The position numbers were made by a program, and so were the translations under genes. Below, in pieces: positions 19,484 through 32,113 of a stretch of 32,113 nucleotides of DNA. Source of the DNA: a virus; IMG/VR virus record IMGVR_UViG_3300032722_001737, one strand, 5' to 3'. Below the pieces are notes generated by a model. The model saw only the letters and a program-made list of their open reading frames with translations, was not told the DNA's origin and made no database searches. How positions within the stretch are numbered: the first letter of the stretch is position 1; every line of letters starts with the position of its first letter.

Positions 19484-19545
19484 AATCTACCACCGTTGCG
19501 ACCGGTCTTACACCTGTGTAAATCGCCTCACTGCTGTGTTACCAT
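19484..19545. promoter_or_regulatory. divergent leaderless promoter pair sharing a palindromic -35 (TTACAC-CT-GTGTAA, 19508-19521)
   Basis: Plus strand: GTGTAAA-N17-TACCAT-N6-ATG at 19552. Minus strand: GTGTAAG-N17-TAGATT-N5-ATG at 19478. Confidence 0.55.
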
Positions 19546-19551
19546 TGACAC

Positions 19552-19896
19552 ATGACCAAGCCAAGCAAGTCAGTACGCATTCTCGACGCGATCGATGAAC
19601 TGGGTGCCGCGGGCATGCGACTCACGGACATCCAGCGCGCGCTCTGGGCGATGACGTATCCGAAGAAGCCCTTCACCCGGGCGCTTCGCGGCTACTGGTG
19701 CACGAACCTTCTCGGTGGACCGCACTACCACGAAGGGTTGCTTCACGCCTTCTGCGAGAAGGATCCCGAAACGGGCAGGTGGGTGCGCAACTGCATCGAC
19801 CACGATGGACATCCCTGGCGCAGGATGCGGGAGCTCTCTGAGTCACACGCCGGGCGGCCGTGCTATTGCTTCTACTGCAGAGGGTCACGTCGATGA
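19552..19896 (+). CDS. hypothetical protein (114 aa), possible winged-helix DNA-binding N-terminus
   Basis: Leaderless promoter. Helical N-terminus RILDAIDELGAAGMRLTDIQRAL. Confidence 0.55.
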   Translation: MTKPSKSVRILDAIDELGAAGMRLTDIQRALWAMTYPKKPFTRALRGYWCTNLLGGPHYHEGLLHAFCEKDPETGRWVRNCIDHDGHPWRRMRELSESHAGRPCYCFYCRGSRR

Positions 19897-20162
19897 TCTT
19901 CCCCGCACACTTGCCCGACGACTGGGTCATCTTCTACCCGTCCGACGGGACGTTCCTCGGGTACCTCGGCCGCGGGTGGATTCACCACGCTGAAAACGCG
20001 ATCGGCTACGAGTTCAAGGCTGACGCGCTCCTCGTCGCGAAGGAGTCACGCAAGCCCGACGAGCAGGCACCATGGGTGTGTCGTCGTCGCGAGTACAAAG
20101 GATCGTGCAGCTCGACGTGCCCGTGGCACAGCAATGTGCAACCGAGGACCTCAGAGAGGTAG
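19893..20162 (+). CDS. hypothetical protein (89 aa)
   Basis: ATGA overlap. Confidence 0.5.
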   Translation: MIFPAHLPDDWVIFYPSDGTFLGYLGRGWIHHAENAIGYEFKADALLVAKESRKPDEQAPWVCRRREYKGSCSSTCPWHSNVQPRTSER

Positions 20163-20171
20163 GATGCGGAC
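20136..20171 (+). promoter_or_regulatory. GTGCAAC-N17-TAGGAT-N6-ATG
   Basis: gtgcaac at 20136-20142 and taggat at 20160-20165. Confidence 0.6.
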
Positions 20172-20450
20172 ATGATCAGTCACCAGAACGCATGCGCAAA
20201 GATGGTGCAGGACACCGTGTTCGTCCACGATGGTGTAGAGCTGCGGTGGGCCTTCGTCAAGAAGGCGTTGAAGGCTGACTTCAAGAAGTCAAAGTGCTAT
20301 CCGACGCGGATCGACGTCGAACTGATGTTCGCTGGGCGAGAACCCGAGGTCCTCGCTCCTGACGTTGTTGTCCTCGACAGTCTCCACATCACGACCAACT
20401 TATGGCCTGAGACGACGAAGCTCGTCCAGGACGCATGGCAAATGAAATGA
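20172..20450 (+). CDS. hypothetical protein (92 aa)
   Basis: Leaderless promoter. Confidence 0.6.
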   Translation: MISHQNACAKMVQDTVFVHDGVELRWAFVKKALKADFKKSKCYPTRIDVELMFAGREPEVLAPDVVVLDSLHITTNLWPETTKLVQDAWQMK

Positions 20451-20641
20451 AGGGTGAGCAAAAGCTCTCTGATTCAGAGAAGAAGCAGTGGCTCCTCGCT
20501 CGCGGCACACGCCGCAGGGGCGTCCACAACTTTTCAAGGAAGATCAGTCACTGGCCGTTCTGCTCGAACTGCGGGCTCGTGGCGCTCAAGAACGACGTGT
20601 CAGTTCGAGCAGCAAAAGCACAATGTGAATGGGAAGAGTGA
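20447..20641 (+). CDS. small zinc-ribbon protein (64 aa; CSNCG)
   Basis: ATGA overlap. Confidence 0.45.
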   Translation: MKGEQKLSDSEKKQWLLARGTRRRGVHNFSRKISHWPFCSNCGLVALKNDVSVRAAKAQCEWEE

Positions 20642-20673
20642 ACGTTCACCAACCACGATGGTAGGATGCCTCC
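20638..20673 (+). promoter_or_regulatory. GTGAACG-N17-TAGGAT-N6-ATG
   Basis: Positions as stated in the call. Confidence 0.55.
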
Positions 20674-21159
20674 ATGCTCAATCCTGACAAGGCGTACAAG
20701 GTCGTTCTCGTCTCGTCCCACCATGACGGTCGACGCAGCGTGAAGATCAAGTTCGCCACGGACTCAAGTCTCACTGCGCATGATTTCCTCAACGACCTCA
20801 TCAAGAGGTGCCCGAAGACGGGCAACGTCGGTCCCGACTACCGCGTCCTCAATCGTATCGACTTCGCAGAACTGAACGCAGTGATCTGCCGAGAGACTGC
20901 GGCGCGGCGGGCGAAGGGTGCGAAGAAGGCGGCAGCGACCCGCAAGAAGCACGGTGCTGCAGCGTTCGTCCTGTGTCCCCGTTGCGGCGCCAAGTCGAAG
21001 AAGCTCTGGAGTGAGATGGGCGGCCTCGAGACGAGGCAATGCAAGAACCATCACAGGTTCGAGCACGATCGTTGGCTAGCTGACAGGGCGTTCTGGGCGC
21101 CGGTCCTTACGGGCCGCGTCATTCCCGAGAGTTCGATCACCAAGGAGGTAGAATCATGA
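20674..21159 (+). CDS. basic zinc-ribbon protein (161 aa; CPRCG...C..HH)
   Basis: Leaderless promoter. KK/RK-rich segment. Confidence 0.6.
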   Translation: MLNPDKAYKVVLVSSHHDGRRSVKIKFATDSSLTAHDFLNDLIKRCPKTGNVGPDYRVLNRIDFAELNAVICRETAARRAKGAKKAAATRKKHGAAAFVLCPRCGAKSKKLWSEMGGLETRQCKNHHRFEHDRWLADRAFWAPVLTGRVIPESSITKEVES

Positions 21160-21347
21160 TGACGAAGAAGGAGTTTCAGCACATCGTACGCGGTTGGGCA
21201 ACGTCTGAGGTCGTTGACGAGTCCCTCAGTCTCGAGGACGTCAAGAAGTTCGACCCGAAGTTCGCACAGCTCCTGTCCGCCTACCTCTCCGCGGTACAGC
21301 AGGTGATCGAGTACGCTGACACGAAAGTCGAGCCGAATGACGGGTGA
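21156..21347 (+). CDS. hypothetical protein (63 aa)
   Basis: SD AAGGAGG plus ATGA overlap. Confidence 0.55.
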   Translation: MMTKKEFQHIVRGWATSEVVDESLSLEDVKKFDPKFAQLLSAYLSAVQQVIEYADTKVEPNDG

Positions 21348-31074: not shown

Positions 31075-31083
31075 TATCGTGCC
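31048..31083 (+). promoter_or_regulatory. GTGCAAG-N17-TAGTAT-N6-ATG (inside the 3' end of the upstream gene)
   Basis: gtgcaag at 31048-31054 and tagtat at 31072-31077. Confidence 0.55.
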
Positions 31084-31323
31084 ATGGTGATTAGGCGACT
31101 TTCGAGGGCGGAAACTCTCTCGATCATCGAGAACTTCAGCAATCGGCTGCGGTCAGTGACGTACGGACCCGACTGCCACGTCACTCACGTGTACGAGAGT
31201 CCCGAAGGGAAGTACTTCGCATTTCACTTCAACACGTACCTCATCACTGAGAGGTTCACGCACGGTGACGAGATCGACGAGGCAGAAGCTAACACCTACC
31301 ACGACGACCTCGCACCGAACTGA
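31084..31323 (+). CDS. hypothetical protein (79 aa)
   Basis: Leaderless promoter. Confidence 0.55.
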   Translation: MVIRRLSRAETLSIIENFSNRLRSVTYGPDCHVTHVYESPEGKYFAFHFNTYLITERFTHGDEIDEAEANTYHDDLAPN

Positions 31324-31335
31324 AGGAGTCGAGTC

Positions 31336-31533
31336 ATGTTGACTGTCAAGCTTCTCAAGCGAACGCAGGCAGTTCGCTTCAACTTCAACGGTAGCGTCGA
31401 GCACGTCTCGCTCGAGAAGGATCAGCTCGTCCGTGTTCACGATCACCTGGTGACGCCGGCGCTCCCCGTCTGGGTCGCGACTGACGGTTGGCTGTTCCCG
31501 AAGCACAACACTTACCTCATGGAGGACGAATGA
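31336..31533 (+). CDS. hypothetical protein (65 aa)
   Basis: SD GAAGGAG. Confidence 0.5.
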   Translation: MLTVKLLKRTQAVRFNFNGSVEHVSLEKDQLVRVHDHLVTPALPVWVATDGWLFPKHNTYLMEDE

Positions 31534-31799
31534 ACAAGCTCTATAGATGCACGGTGATCACGCACCTCGTTGTCTCTGCGAAGGACGAGTACGAGGCGGA
31601 AGAGATCGCAAGGAAAAACGCTCGTGAGGAGAACACCATCGACAACGTGCTCGTCGAGTACGAGATCACGAAGGAGAAGGAGGTCCCTTCGGGCTGGATG
31701 TGCTCGTACCCGTACGTTCAGAACGGCGTCGCGAACGACTACACGGTCGAAGAGCTCATCAGTGCAAGCGCAGTGCAAGTTCCACCACTTCGGGGGTAG
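31530..31799 (+). CDS. hypothetical protein (89 aa)
   Basis: SD GGAGGA plus ATGA overlap. Confidence 0.55.
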   Translation: MNKLYRCTVITHLVVSAKDEYEAEEIARKNAREENTIDNVLVEYEITKEKEVPSGWMCSYPYVQNGVANDYTVEELISASAVQVPPLRG

Positions 31800-31808
31800 G
31801 ATACGACC
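31773..31808 (+). promoter_or_regulatory. GTGCAAG-N17-TAGGAT-N6-ATG (the -35 is tandemly duplicated: AGTGCAAGCGCAGTGCAAG)
   Basis: gtgcaag at 31773-31779 and taggat at 31797-31802. Confidence 0.6.
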
Positions 31809-32015
31809 ATGGCAACTGAGAGGGTGCTCATCATTCACGAGGACGAAGCAGGCATGCTTCTTCACGCCGTGTGCGAACACGTGAGCAGTAGTCAGTATGA
31901 CCTGCGGAATGACGAGGATTCTTGCGAGATCCAGTGGATGCTCGATCTCAAGAAGAAGCTCAGCCTTTACCTCGATGGCGAACTCAGCAAGGACGTCATC
32001 ACCACTCCACGCTGA
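31809..32015 (+). CDS. hypothetical protein (68 aa)
   Basis: Leaderless promoter. Confidence 0.55.
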   Translation: MATERVLIIHEDEAGMLLHAVCEHVSSSQYDLRNDEDSCEIQWMLDLKKKLSLYLDGELSKDVITTPR

Positions 32016-32029
32016 AGGAGAATCCGATC

Positions 32030-32113
32030 ATGTCGAAGGACTTCGTTCATCGCAATCCACGTCCCAGCATCGCCATCGTCTGCACCGGCGGTCGTTCGCT
32101 CGGCAACTGCTAC
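32030..32113 (+). CDS. hypothetical protein, 5' partial (runs off the window)
   Basis: SD GAAGGAGA lies 8 nt before the ATG. Confidence 0.5.
   Translation, partial: MSKDFVHRNPRPSIAIVCTGGRSLGNCY

Follow-up and report, generated by a model that had tools for sequence, protein, structure and literature searches.

The window analyzed here, the whole 32,113-nt stretch of the IMG/VR virus record IMGVR_UViG_3300032722_001737, contains two divergent gene arrays that meet at 19.5 kb and encode short proteins without detectable homologs, and these are the genes preceded by a recurrent two-block motif. The structural-type genes (a vault-protein homolog and a capsid fragment) carry no motif. A bridging contig links the window to a 145-kb IMG/VR contig, and the joined stretch of 50.9 kb holds 61 rightward copies of the putative promoter within 31 kb; about 51 kb was read of a genome of at least 177 kb. 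To judge from its organization, the two-array layout of short genes would be the usual appearance of early, host-takeover genes in large lytic phages.

A search for GTGCAA-N16-GGTAGGAT with up to three mismatches returned 22 matches on both strands of the window, whereas 100 dinucleotide-preserving shuffles gave 1.86 on average and never more than 6. A two-block weight matrix with spacers of 16 to 18 nt gave 24 sites scoring at least 11.5 bits; with two weak sites, before 19552 and 18716, the total is about 26, which roughly bears out the at least 25 copies of a bipartite promoter proposed in the initial annotation. GTGyAAn and the hexamer are 17 nt apart everywhere except at 29636 and 19152, where the spacer is 16 nt, and the trinucleotide 5' of the hexamer is TGG, AGG, or GGG. 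The two strands of the window together contain 10 copies of TAGGAT, each within a promoter site, with GG before it and GTG 21 nt upstream; since about 12 occurrences are expected from base composition, the hexamer is absent from the rest of the window.

Most rightward sites lie directly before a start codon. GTGCAAC-N17-TAGGAT precedes predicted leaderless ATGs at 20172 (site 20136..20165), 23402 (23366..23395), 28036 (28000..28029), and 29270 (29234..29263), and TAGGAT follows by the same spacer on GTGCAAG before ATGs 28370 (28334..28363) and 31809 (31773..31802), on GTGAACG before ATG 20674 (20638..20667), and on GTGCATG before ATG 25933 (25897..25926). Variant hexamers with the same putative leaderless arrangement are found in GTGCAAG-N17-TAATAT (22403..22432, ATG 22439), GTGCAAT-N17-TAGTAT (24483..24512, ATG 24519), where the upstream stop falls within the 6-nt discriminator, GTGCAAC-N17-TAAGAT (27223..27252, ATG 27259), GTGCAAG-N17-TAGTAT (31048..31077, ATG 31084), and GTGAAAA-N16-TAGGGT (29636..29664, ATG 29671), which lies wholly within the upstream gene. 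Two rightward sites of this arrangement are weak: GTGCAAG-N17-TAGAGC (24731..24760, ATG 24767), without T at -7, and GTGTAAA-N17-TACCAT, 6 nt before ATG 19552 (19516..19545), which is back to back with a leftward promoter at 19484-19513 and has a strong counterpart before the orthologous gene in contigs L104 and L090. All 14 plus-strand starts named initially carry the motif, as does 27259. Stop codons of upstream genes inside promoters, also reported before, were confirmed, and at 20160, 31072, and 31797 (the sites of ATGs 20172, 31084, and 31809) the TAG of the hexamer is itself the upstream stop.

The remaining rightward sites stand farther from a gene: GTGCACC-N17-TAGGGT (21568..21597) has no ATG at +1 and is followed by about 265 nt without a called gene, GTGCAAC-N17-TATGAT (25468..25497) has a leader of about 17 nt before ATG 25521, GTGTATC-N17-TAGGAT (26380..26409) has a 23-nt leader with GGAAGGAG before ATG 26439, and the weak GTGAATA-N17-TATGGT (30391..30420) has a leader with AAGGAG before ATG 30448, the L077 ortholog of which appears leaderless.

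On the minus strand, an exact-consensus GTGCAAC-N17-TAGGAT (14870..14899) and GTGTAAA-N17-TAGAAT (2413..2442) precede predicted leaderless ATGs at 14863 and 2406, the latter heading an operon that includes a NinI-like phosphatase (1113-1931). GTGTAAG-N17-TAGATT (19484..19513) is followed after 5 nt, not the 6 nt claimed, by ATG 19478, which opens a 7-codon mini-ORF whose TGA overlaps ATG 19458 of the real gene, and the leaderless ATG 19117 of GTGTACT-N16-TAGGGT (19124..19152) likewise opens a mini-ORF, of 15 codons, with its TGA overlapping the ATG of the gene at 19073; these two ATGs thus begin mini-ORFs and not the annotated genes. The weak GTGTAAA-N17-TACACT (18775..18804) stands before a leader of about 50 nt with AAGGAGAG and ATG 18716 of an ATPase gene, the ortholog of which in L010 has a strong promoter copy. 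GTGTATT-N17-TAAGAT (17267..17296) lies about 25 nt upstream of tRNA-Thr(TGT) (17162-17235), and promoters before tRNA-like sequence were found in L026 and L151 also; a weak GTGCAAT-N17-TACTAT (16210..16239) has a short leader. Of the 24 scored sites in the window, 16 have an ATG exactly 6 nt 3' of the hexamer, about 0.4 being expected by chance, and a constant 6-nt distance fails at the sites with leaders (rightward 21568, 25468, 26380, and 30391; leftward 18804, 17296, and 16239).

In promoter geometry, a -35-like box occupies -36 to -30, T/G stand at -15/-14, TAnnnT spans -12 to -7, and C at -1 is followed by the A of the ATG at +1. The consensus reads c-R-GTGyAA (-38 to -31), G-T-G-G (-16 to -13), TAGGAT (-12 to -7), nRRAYC (-6 to -1), and ATG, with T-12, A-11, and T-7 invariant. 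Read with an 18-nt spacer, GTG(C/A)AA has the T and G core of TTGACA plus one or two A positions, that is, 3 to 4 of 6 bases, and is less unlike TTGACA than had been stated. Among 110 non-redundant sites in related contigs, where the geometry was read at positions not used for selection, T-15 occurs in 65 and G-14 in 104, C-1 in 93 and A+1 in 99, and an ATG lies exactly 6 nt 3' of the hexamer in 84. Within the window, TAnnnT at -12 to -7 was found in 16 of 72 genes and a Shine-Dalgarno-like tetramer in 32 of the other 56; the genes without the motif have AAGGAG-type sites. The motif also stands upstream of tRNA-Thr and of four genes with Shine-Dalgarno leaders, which identifies it as a transcription signal and not a translation signal. 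Neither E. coli-type promoters nor intrinsic terminators exceeded chance, and no A/T-rich UP element was found at these promoters. We consider it probable, at about 0.65, that the sites belong to the "-35 plus extended -10" type of sigma-70-family promoter, are read by a primary-type sigma, and give leaderless mRNAs. Every sequence-level test made here agrees with the bipartite promoters and leaderless mRNAs suggested earlier, and transcription is predicted to start on the A of the ATG.

The motif is conserved in a clade of uncultured phages represented by contigs about 10 to 340 kb long, and the promoter is kept at orthologous genes in contigs with 35 to 52% amino acid identity. TAGGAT fits the Streptomyces HrdB consensus TASVDT (PMC12809767), and the resemblance to actinobacterial -10 elements noted initially stands to that extent. 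The identical 39-nt pattern, however, occurs at genuine gene starts in genomes of Acidobacteriota, Myxococcota, Desulfobacterota, Planctomycetota, and Actinomycetota, and in every high-G+C genome hit it sits at the Pfam-supported N-terminus of a cellular gene. An actinobacterial host is therefore no more than plausible. Against reading by a host sigma, the -35 box is invariant across phages of 53% to 66% G+C, as it might also be if the clade carried its own factor, our searches found no cellular genome rich in motif copies, and the phage encodes a sigma-70-like protein with a changed -35-reading helix (see below).

If the sites are promoters for a primary-type sigma, holoenzyme would open the DNA at TAnnnT and initiate 7 nt farther on, at the A of the ATG; the resulting mRNA would begin with its start codon and need no Shine-Dalgarno site for translation. 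A transcript can have no leaderless gene other than its first, which would explain why the promoter is repeated before most genes; genes farther along a transcript would rely on AAGGAG-type ribosome sites, and, as terminators are absent, transcripts from successive promoters would overlap. The promoter abuts the start codon of most of the small, early-type genes, each of which probably has its own leaderless mRNA. TAnnnT about 12 nt before the start is an established signature of leaderless genes (PMC3160421, PMC3890552, PMC12340547), and a precedent is known from T4, whose small early genes lie behind many strong, extended promoters for the host sigma (PMC2988021). When infection begins, the promoters would be read by host core polymerase carrying the primary sigma of the host, a role that a phage sigma may later share or take over. 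We infer both the early timing and the choice of sigma; that the host sigma would act first is suggested by the same-class promoter before the phage sigma gene itself and from the identical architecture at cellular gene starts.

A phage sigma had been guessed at in the initial annotation, and a sigma-70-like gene with an altered region 4.2 is indeed encoded by the same phage. It is possible, if doubtful, that this 229-amino-acid protein, P0001, is the main reader of a private code, with its altered region 4.2 helix recognizing GTGyAA, the host sigma priming weakly, and positive feedback driving the array. Its gene is part of the same rightward array and lies about 12.5 kb outside the window. 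P0001 has no region 1; regions 2.3, 2.4, and 3.0 are conserved, which fits TAnnnT with TG upstream, and regions 2 and 3 are about 50% identical to those of primary sigmas. In the -35-reading helix RERIRQ is changed to RERIMA (R588M- and Q589A-equivalent changes), the protein has no close relative (next best matches, about 50% identical), and the -35 box is fixed throughout a diverse phage clade. A 6-residue deletion in the helix preceding the -35-reading helix, however, may cripple the helix-turn-helix instead of retuning it; the structure model of the protein is poor (mean pLDDT, 57.8; below 50 in region 4). The sigma gene, moreover, stands behind a promoter of the same class, GTGTAAC-N16-TACAGT-GATCTC-ATG, so that another sigma must read the class first, and no sigma gene was found in a partial sample of roughly 276 kb from other clade members. 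Sigmas encoded by early genes, such as SPO1 gp28, more commonly act on promoters of a later class, which also counts against P0001 as the main reader.

The other explanations are far less probable. An RNA-level or translational role, with GGUAGGAU as a ribosome- or protein-binding site on long transcripts, is very unlikely. The AGGA of TAGGAT does end at a good Shine-Dalgarno distance, 7 nt from the ATG, TAGGAT is found in 41 of 93 sites with an immediate ATG versus 7 of 33 with leaders (P = 0.02), and the motif is asymmetric, lies before ATGs in nonstructural regions, and often holds the upstream stop, like the Start-Associated Sequences of Cluster K mycobacteriophages (PMC3203893). Such a role would account neither for a second block at a constant 17 nt, past a spacer of varying sequence, nor for the invariant T-7 and A-11, nor for C-1 followed by A+1. 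The motif also occurs before a tRNA gene and lies 17 to 50 nt ahead of genes with an AAGGAG of their own. On read-through transcripts, the same bases could still double as a Shine-Dalgarno site. Sigma appropriation, another guess made initially, would have an activator on the GTGCAA box replace sigma region 4, with an AsiA-like cofactor, as at T4 middle promoters, which likewise combine a good -10 element with a phage-specific upstream box. In its favor are a Gp23-like capsid fragment in this phage and a box that begins with TGC like the MotA box TGCTT (PMC2988021). We nevertheless regard this as highly improbable: the box lies at the canonical -35 distance, 17 to 18 bp from the hexamer and centered near -34, whereas the MotA box is centered at -30, 12 ± 1 bp from the -10 element, neither MotA nor AsiA was detected among the 74 window proteins (Pfam and PHROGs), and the arrays showed no distinct, earlier class of promoter from which such factors could be made. 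Scarcely credible is a main role in shuffling small genes by homologous recombination, like the T4-type promoter-early stem-loop (PeSL) cassettes, for which the many near-identical 30- to 40-nt repeats flanking homolog-less small genes recall T4-type hyperplastic regions (PMC2839356, PMC4122927). There is no stem-loop (mean fold energy of the 54 nt upstream, -13.5 kcal/mol versus -13.6 in controls), the spacer is not conserved, the two shared blocks of 7 to 8 nt are short for homologous recombination, and strain differences involve homing-endonuclease genes rather than promoter-bounded cassettes.

As promoters for a primary-type sigma, the sites can be set beside several known systems. SPO1 gp28 and T4 gp55 are phage-encoded sigma factors, and rpoD-like genes are present in Microcystis phage MaAM05 and Synechococcus phage S-CBS3; this phage, too, has its own sigma gene among putative early genes, but P0001 differs from other phage sigmas in being close to primary sigmas in regions 2 and 3, lacking region 1, and having an altered region 4.2. 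T4 early promoters are strong, extended UP/-35/TGn/-10 promoters read by host sigma-70 (Hinton 2010, PMC2988021) and share with those described here their occurrence as dozens of near-identical strong promoters before small early genes of a large lytic phage, the combination of -35, TGn, and -10, and conserved positions beyond the host consensus. Unlike them, the present promoters have no A/T-rich UP element, a GTGyAA box at -35, a start site that would coincide with the start codon, and a density of about one per 500 bp.

The "TA-led" leaderless genes of Actinobacteria, Deinococcus-Thermus, and other phyla (PMC3160421, PMC3890552, PMC3898074, PMC4007540, PMC12340547) have the first T of TAnnnT 12 nt before the ATG and coexist with Shine-Dalgarno-led genes in the same genome, as here; their -35 conservation is weak or absent, whereas this phage has a nearly invariant -35 box and nearly invariant bases at -16 to -13, its sites being packed in one array. 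In Cluster O mycobacteriophages (PMC4351075), SigA-like promoters have a predicted +1 at the first base of the start codon, and one intergenic region holds a divergent pair; each genome has 8 to 9 promoters with a TTGACA-like -35, only three of them leaderless, compared with more than 60 and a distinct -35 box here. The Cluster K Start-Associated Sequences (GGGATAGGAGCCC, PMC3203893) place TAGGA asymmetrically a few bases before nonstructural ATGs, often contain the upstream stop, and are absent from host genomes, but they have G where a -10 hexamer needs T at -7, a start distance of 3 to 7 nt, and, in place of a fixed -35 partner, a companion upstream 17-bp inverted repeat, and they are thought to be translational. 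The kind of signal described here is already known, and the present phage is a dense, tidy example of it.

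A two-part sequence, GTGyAAn-N17-TAGGAT, recurs through the window, mostly with its hexamer 6 nt ahead of an ATG. When both strands of the 32,113-base window were searched for GTGCAA-N16-GGTAGGAT with up to three mismatches, 22 matches were obtained, against an average of 1.86, and never more than 6, in 100 dinucleotide-preserving shuffles; the comparison with shuffled sequence, suggested in the initial annotation as a check, thereby came out in favor of the motif. A two-block weight matrix with spacers of 16 to 18 nt yielded 24 sites of at least 11.5 bits in the window; counting two weaker sites as well (before 19552 and 18716), there are about 26, in agreement with an earlier count of at least 25 copies. 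Nineteen sites point rightward, from 19516 to 31802, and seven point leftward (19513, 19152, 18804, 17296, 16239, 14899, and 2442). The spacer measures 17 nt from GTGyAAn (18 nt from GTGyAA) in 24 of the 26 sites, and the hexamer has the form TAnnnT at every window site except one, TAGAGC at 24755-24760. An ATG stands exactly six bases past the hexamer in 16 of the 24 scored sites, compared with about 0.4 by chance; the fixed 6-nt distance first described holds for these 16, but seven sites lie away from any start codon. TAGGAT itself occurs 10 times in the window, always inside a motif site, after GG, and with GTG 21 nt upstream; base composition predicts about 12 copies, and none falls outside the sites. 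GTGCAA, with 35 copies of which about 14 are in sites, is not site-restricted as TAGGAT is.

Base columns that had not been used in site selection were counted in 110 nonredundant sites of related contigs. With the A of the ATG as +1, the hexamer spans -12 to -7, the GG lies at -14/-13, and GTGyAAn covers -36 to -30. Just upstream of this block, C occupies -38 in 73 of the 110 sites and a purine occupies -37 in 88, and ahead of the hexamer the preferred bases are G at -16 (64 sites), T at -15 (65 sites, with C in none), and G at -14 (104 sites). Downstream, A is found at -3 in 74 sites, C at -1 in 93, and A at +1 in 99, and the ATG begins exactly six bases after the hexamer in 84 of the 110. 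The T at -15 and G at -14 make up the TGn extended -10 element, which is present at motif sites, and no A/T-rich upstream element was seen at the 110 sites. The usual start-site pair is a pyrimidine at -1 and a purine at +1, and the C and A at the motif sites fit it. This geometry matches that of a sigma-70-family promoter, and the spacing is within the 17 ± 1 bp of a -35 element. The -35 box had been described as unlike TTGACA; GTG(C/A)AA with its 18-nt spacer matches that sequence at only three to four of six bases, and the consensus of the host may differ; the sigma-A promoters of Corynebacterium carry TTGNCA at 16 to 19 nt (PMC3890552). With the -10 hexamer, the TGn element, the spacing, and the ATG at +1 all in agreement, the main interpretation of the motif, that of a bipartite promoter that would give leaderless mRNAs, stands up at the level of sequence analysis.

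The sites away from a start codon are those at 21568, 25468, 26380, and 30391 on the plus strand and at 18804, 17296, and 16239 on the minus strand. A leader of 17 to 50 nt with an AAGGAG-type ribosome site follows four of the seven, and about 25 nt downstream of one lies a tRNA-Thr(TGT), the only feature found by Rfam and ARAGORN in the window. Behind promoter 21568, about 265 nt (21604-21868, plus strand) hold no called gene; this stretch has no Rfam match and an ordinary RNA fold (z-score, 0.03), and an arginine- and lysine-rich ORF running from the ATG at 21658 to 21918 overlaps the next gene. Two minus-strand ATGs, 19478 and 19117, had been listed as gene starts in the initial annotation; instead of the annotated genes, they open mini-ORFs of 7 codons (19455-19478) and 15 codons (19070-19117). 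[quoted passage not shown]

Because the motif precedes the tRNA gene in the window and tRNA-like sequence in two related loci (L026 and L151), and also stands at some distance upstream from genes that have ribosome sites of their own, we take it to be a transcription signal that is not tied to translation. TAnnnT occupies -12 to -7 in 16 of 72 window genes, and 32 of the remaining 56 have a Shine-Dalgarno-like tetramer, which points to two modes of translation initiation in this organism. A generic scan of 19300-32113 found neither E. coli-type promoters nor intrinsic terminators above chance, and with terminators at chance level the transcripts from successive promoters would overlap. The intergenic space is filled by promoters: at all 16 plus-strand sites with a close upstream gene, the upstream stop codon ends between -42 and -3, as expected from the earlier remark that stop codons are embedded in these promoters, and in three cases the TAG of the hexamer is the stop codon of the upstream gene. 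TAGGAT is present at 41 of 93 leaderless sites versus 7 of 33 leadered sites (P = 0.02, with about 2 false positives expected), and the AGGA within it ends 7 nt before the ATG. We hypothesize, rather than find, that TAGGAT may double as a ribosome site on read-through transcripts.

IMG/VR was scanned with the exact 14-base consensus. Most of the contigs matched contain single, chance-like copies, and about 12 contigs of 10 to 340 kb and 53 to 66% G+C contain many copies with the same placement against the ATG. Several window genes are common to these multicopy contigs at 30 to 69% amino acid identity, and the promoter is kept before their orthologs of the 19552 and 30448 genes. Slight lineage variants of the motif include GTGCAAAGTT...TAGGAT-AGAACC in one related contig (L087) and GTGAAAC...TAGACT-GGnACC in the 340-kb contig; a scan with GTGAAAC/TAGACT retrieved only 11 kb of the latter, with no sigma gene in those 11 kb. 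In some lineages (related contigs L087, L026, L001, L031, L010, and L032), the spacer is also conserved and holds a short dyad, GTTC-N6-GAAC (e.g., GTGCAAAGTTCACCCTCGAAC...GGTAGGAT), to which a dimeric regulator might bind as an operator that overlaps the promoter; the dyad was not seen in the window's own sites. Proteins of the window recur on short contigs from one JGI/SRA sample series, which comprises JGI Ga0316217 to Ga0316232 and the SRA runs SRR11286063-67, SRR11285815, and SRR11607848.

The end sequence of the window has no match in IMG/VR, and its single match among metagenome contigs is the bridging contig L171 (JGI contig Ga0316232_1011154). Window positions 30693-32113 correspond to positions 1-1410 of L171 at 99.0% identity, and the continuation of L171 matches the terminal 3.7 kb of IMG/VR contig 3300032722_000006 (145,283 bp) at 100% identity. 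Since L171 bridges the two, the window and 3300032722_000006 belong side by side in a single phage genome, the size of which is at least about 177 kb. In a 50.9-kb composite of the window, L171, and the end of that contig, the interval from 20.1 to 50.7 kb contains 61 rightward promoters, 42 of which have the ATG at +1.

About 12.5 kb past the window is the gene for P0001, a 229-aa sigma-70-family protein (minus strand of L090, 5610-6299, which is about 132.9-133.6 kb in 3300032722_000006; 44,618 in the composite). P0001 was first detected with an E. coli RpoD C-terminal query, and Pfam confirmed regions 2, 3, and 4. P0001 has no region 1 and retains conserved regions 2.3, 2.4, and 3.0. In region 4.2, six residues are deleted from the first helix of the helix-turn-helix, and the recognition helix reads RERIMA, versus RERIRQ in primary sigmas. 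No relative exceeds about 50% identity, the level reached by generic primary sigmas, which are the closest matches, and a search for relatives with P0001 as the query returned only the same contig and unrelated phages without the motif. An AlphaFold model with a mean pLDDT of 57.8 is too poor to judge region 4. The P0001 gene is itself preceded by GTGTAAC-N16-TACAGT-GATCTC-ATG, a weak promoter of the type described here.

We favor the host primary sigma factor as the probable reader of these promoters, at least at the start of infection, since the P0001 gene itself depends on the same promoter class and the arrays show no second class. Phage T4 likewise has many strong, extended promoters ahead of its small early genes (PMC2988021). 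The main rival explanation, less likely but credible, is that P0001 reads the -35 box, as the changes in this protein fall in the -35-reading helix and phages that differ considerably in G+C content have the same box. An extended form of this explanation, which we regard as unlikely, would give the clade a private transcription-translation scheme: a minimal sigma-70 without region 1 and with a remodeled -35-reading helix would read GTGyAA, each early gene would have its own promoter and a leaderless mRNA, and TAGGAT would double as a Shine-Dalgarno sequence on longer transcripts. A further argument for the host primary sigma is that the identical 39-nt pattern stands at real cellular gene starts. 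The exact consensus plus ATG has 32 scattered matches in 596 Gb of genomes, among which there is no genome with many copies and no prophage, L151 being the one multicopy locus. All 11 matches in loci of at least 55% G+C open ORFs of 71 to 708 codons; two of the 11 (L134 and L151) are phage-like contigs binned into metagenome bins. Pfam domains were found in 8 of 10 ORFs tested (nine cellular matches and one Arcobacter match), and in five of them the domain starts within the first 22 residues. The cellular matches come from Acidobacteriota, Myxococcota, Desulfobacterota, Planctomycetota, Actinomycetota, and a bin labeled Patescibacteria, a range of phyla near the known distribution of leaderless genes (PMC3160421).

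The range of these matches also bears on the identity of the host. TAGGAT fits the HrdB consensus of Streptomyces, TASVDT (PMC12809767), and to that extent its initial description as a Streptomyces/actinobacterial -10 element stands, but because the same pattern stands at gene starts in several phyla, TAGGAT is no proof of an actinobacterial host. The WhiB signature G[VIL]WGG was not found in the window or related loci, no protein matched a cultured actinophage, and the genome scan gave no informative match; the host may nonetheless be actinobacterial. The L151 locus (JBBAUR010000072.1, in a Bdellovibrionota MAG) has several promoter copies and an ortholog of the window ATPase, and L134 (JAYSOF010000045.1, in a bacterial MAG) has one strong and one weak promoter copy; both look like phage contigs binned into MAGs, and their placement there may come from misbinning or may point weakly to the host.

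No match to the region was found by megablast among 50,697 phage records, and tblastn with the ATPase, a vault-protein homolog, and a capsid fragment gave only distant or mislabeled matches. The window also encodes a NinI-like phosphatase and a RadA-like ATPase; Pfam and PHROGs give almost no matches for its 74 other predicted proteins, and no sigma, anti-sigma, MotA, AsiA, or WhiB protein was found among them with these databases. The homolog of the eukaryotic major vault protein (8516-11200, minus strand; 894 aa; Pfam MVP_shoulder, Vault_3, and Vault) has 40% identity to proteins of the huge phages LR756500 and LR756501, and phage vault proteins have been described in a 2023 preprint (10.1101/2023.11.10.566534). 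The vault gene is preceded by A/T-rich sequence containing TATGAT and TGTATAATAA; this sequence bears little resemblance to the GTGCAA/TAGGAT promoters and may represent a different promoter class. After the gene (8431-8516, minus strand), a strong G+C-rich hairpin, CATCGGGCCGCG ... CGCGGCCCGATG, has no T-tract and is followed by TATGAT; it may be a terminator or an RNA-processing site before the next gene.

A 217-aa ORF (6550-7203, minus strand) is a Gp23-like capsid fragment, with a match that covers only about 43 residues. A 136-aa ORF (6159-6569, minus strand) overlaps it by 20 nt, and the two ORFs are followed by a homing-endonuclease-like gene of 262 aa (5491-6279, minus strand), at whose place a variant contig (L160) has a 222-aa gene; the capsid gene may be split or interrupted. 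NUMOD3-type homing endonuclease genes at 17428-17946 and 11365-11991 are on the plus strand, opposite to the leftward gene array in which they lie. In a sister contig (L123), a 223-aa GIY-YIG gene replaces the 172-aa gene at the 17428-17946 position, and endonuclease content therefore varies between strains.

For large uncultured phages without a cultured relative, the motif provides a sequence-derived map of transcription units and true start codons, and it recognizes further clade members, one pattern scan having led to a dozen related contigs. It shows how far a phage can take the one-promoter-per-gene layout required by leaderless translation, with the whole intergenic space being promoter and the -10 hexamer often giving the upstream stop codon. 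The altered-helix sigma in the array poses the question of whether there is a phage-owned promoter class that differs from that of the host only in the -35 box. Current understanding of promoters and of leaderless mRNAs is unchanged by the finding.

As a kind of signal, the motif belongs with sigma-70-type phage early promoters and leaderless genes, both already known; leaderless genes are documented (PMC3160421, PMC3890552, PMC3898074, PMC4007540, PMC12340547), and leaderless SigA-like promoters have been predicted in Cluster O mycobacteriophages (PMC4351075). Other known systems fit it less well. In MotA/AsiA-type appropriation, the MotA box (a/t)(a/t)(a/t)TGCTTtA sits 12 ± 1 bp from the -10 element (PMC2988021), whereas the conserved block here, -38 to -30, is 17 to 18 bp from the hexamer, and neither MotA nor AsiA was found by Pfam or PHROGs among the 74 window proteins. 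The PeSL promoter-terminator cassettes were rejected, as the upstream stem-loop was not found, fold energy equaled that of controls, and terminator-like sites were not above chance. The Start-Associated Sequences of Cluster K mycobacteriophages, a 13-bp repeat, GGGATAGGAGCCC, located 3 to 7 nt before the start (PMC3203893), are superficially similar and lack a fixed-distance -35 partner; the window motif has its partner box at a fixed 17 nt, a fixed distance of 6 nt to the start, and T, not G, as the final base of the hexamer. No description of this motif was found in the literature on TAGGAT, leaderless mRNAs, and phage. Compared with these systems, what is new here is the particular consensus, its density of about one promoter per 500 bp, its conservation across a clade of large uncultured phages, and the presence in the same array of a phage sigma with an altered region 4.2.
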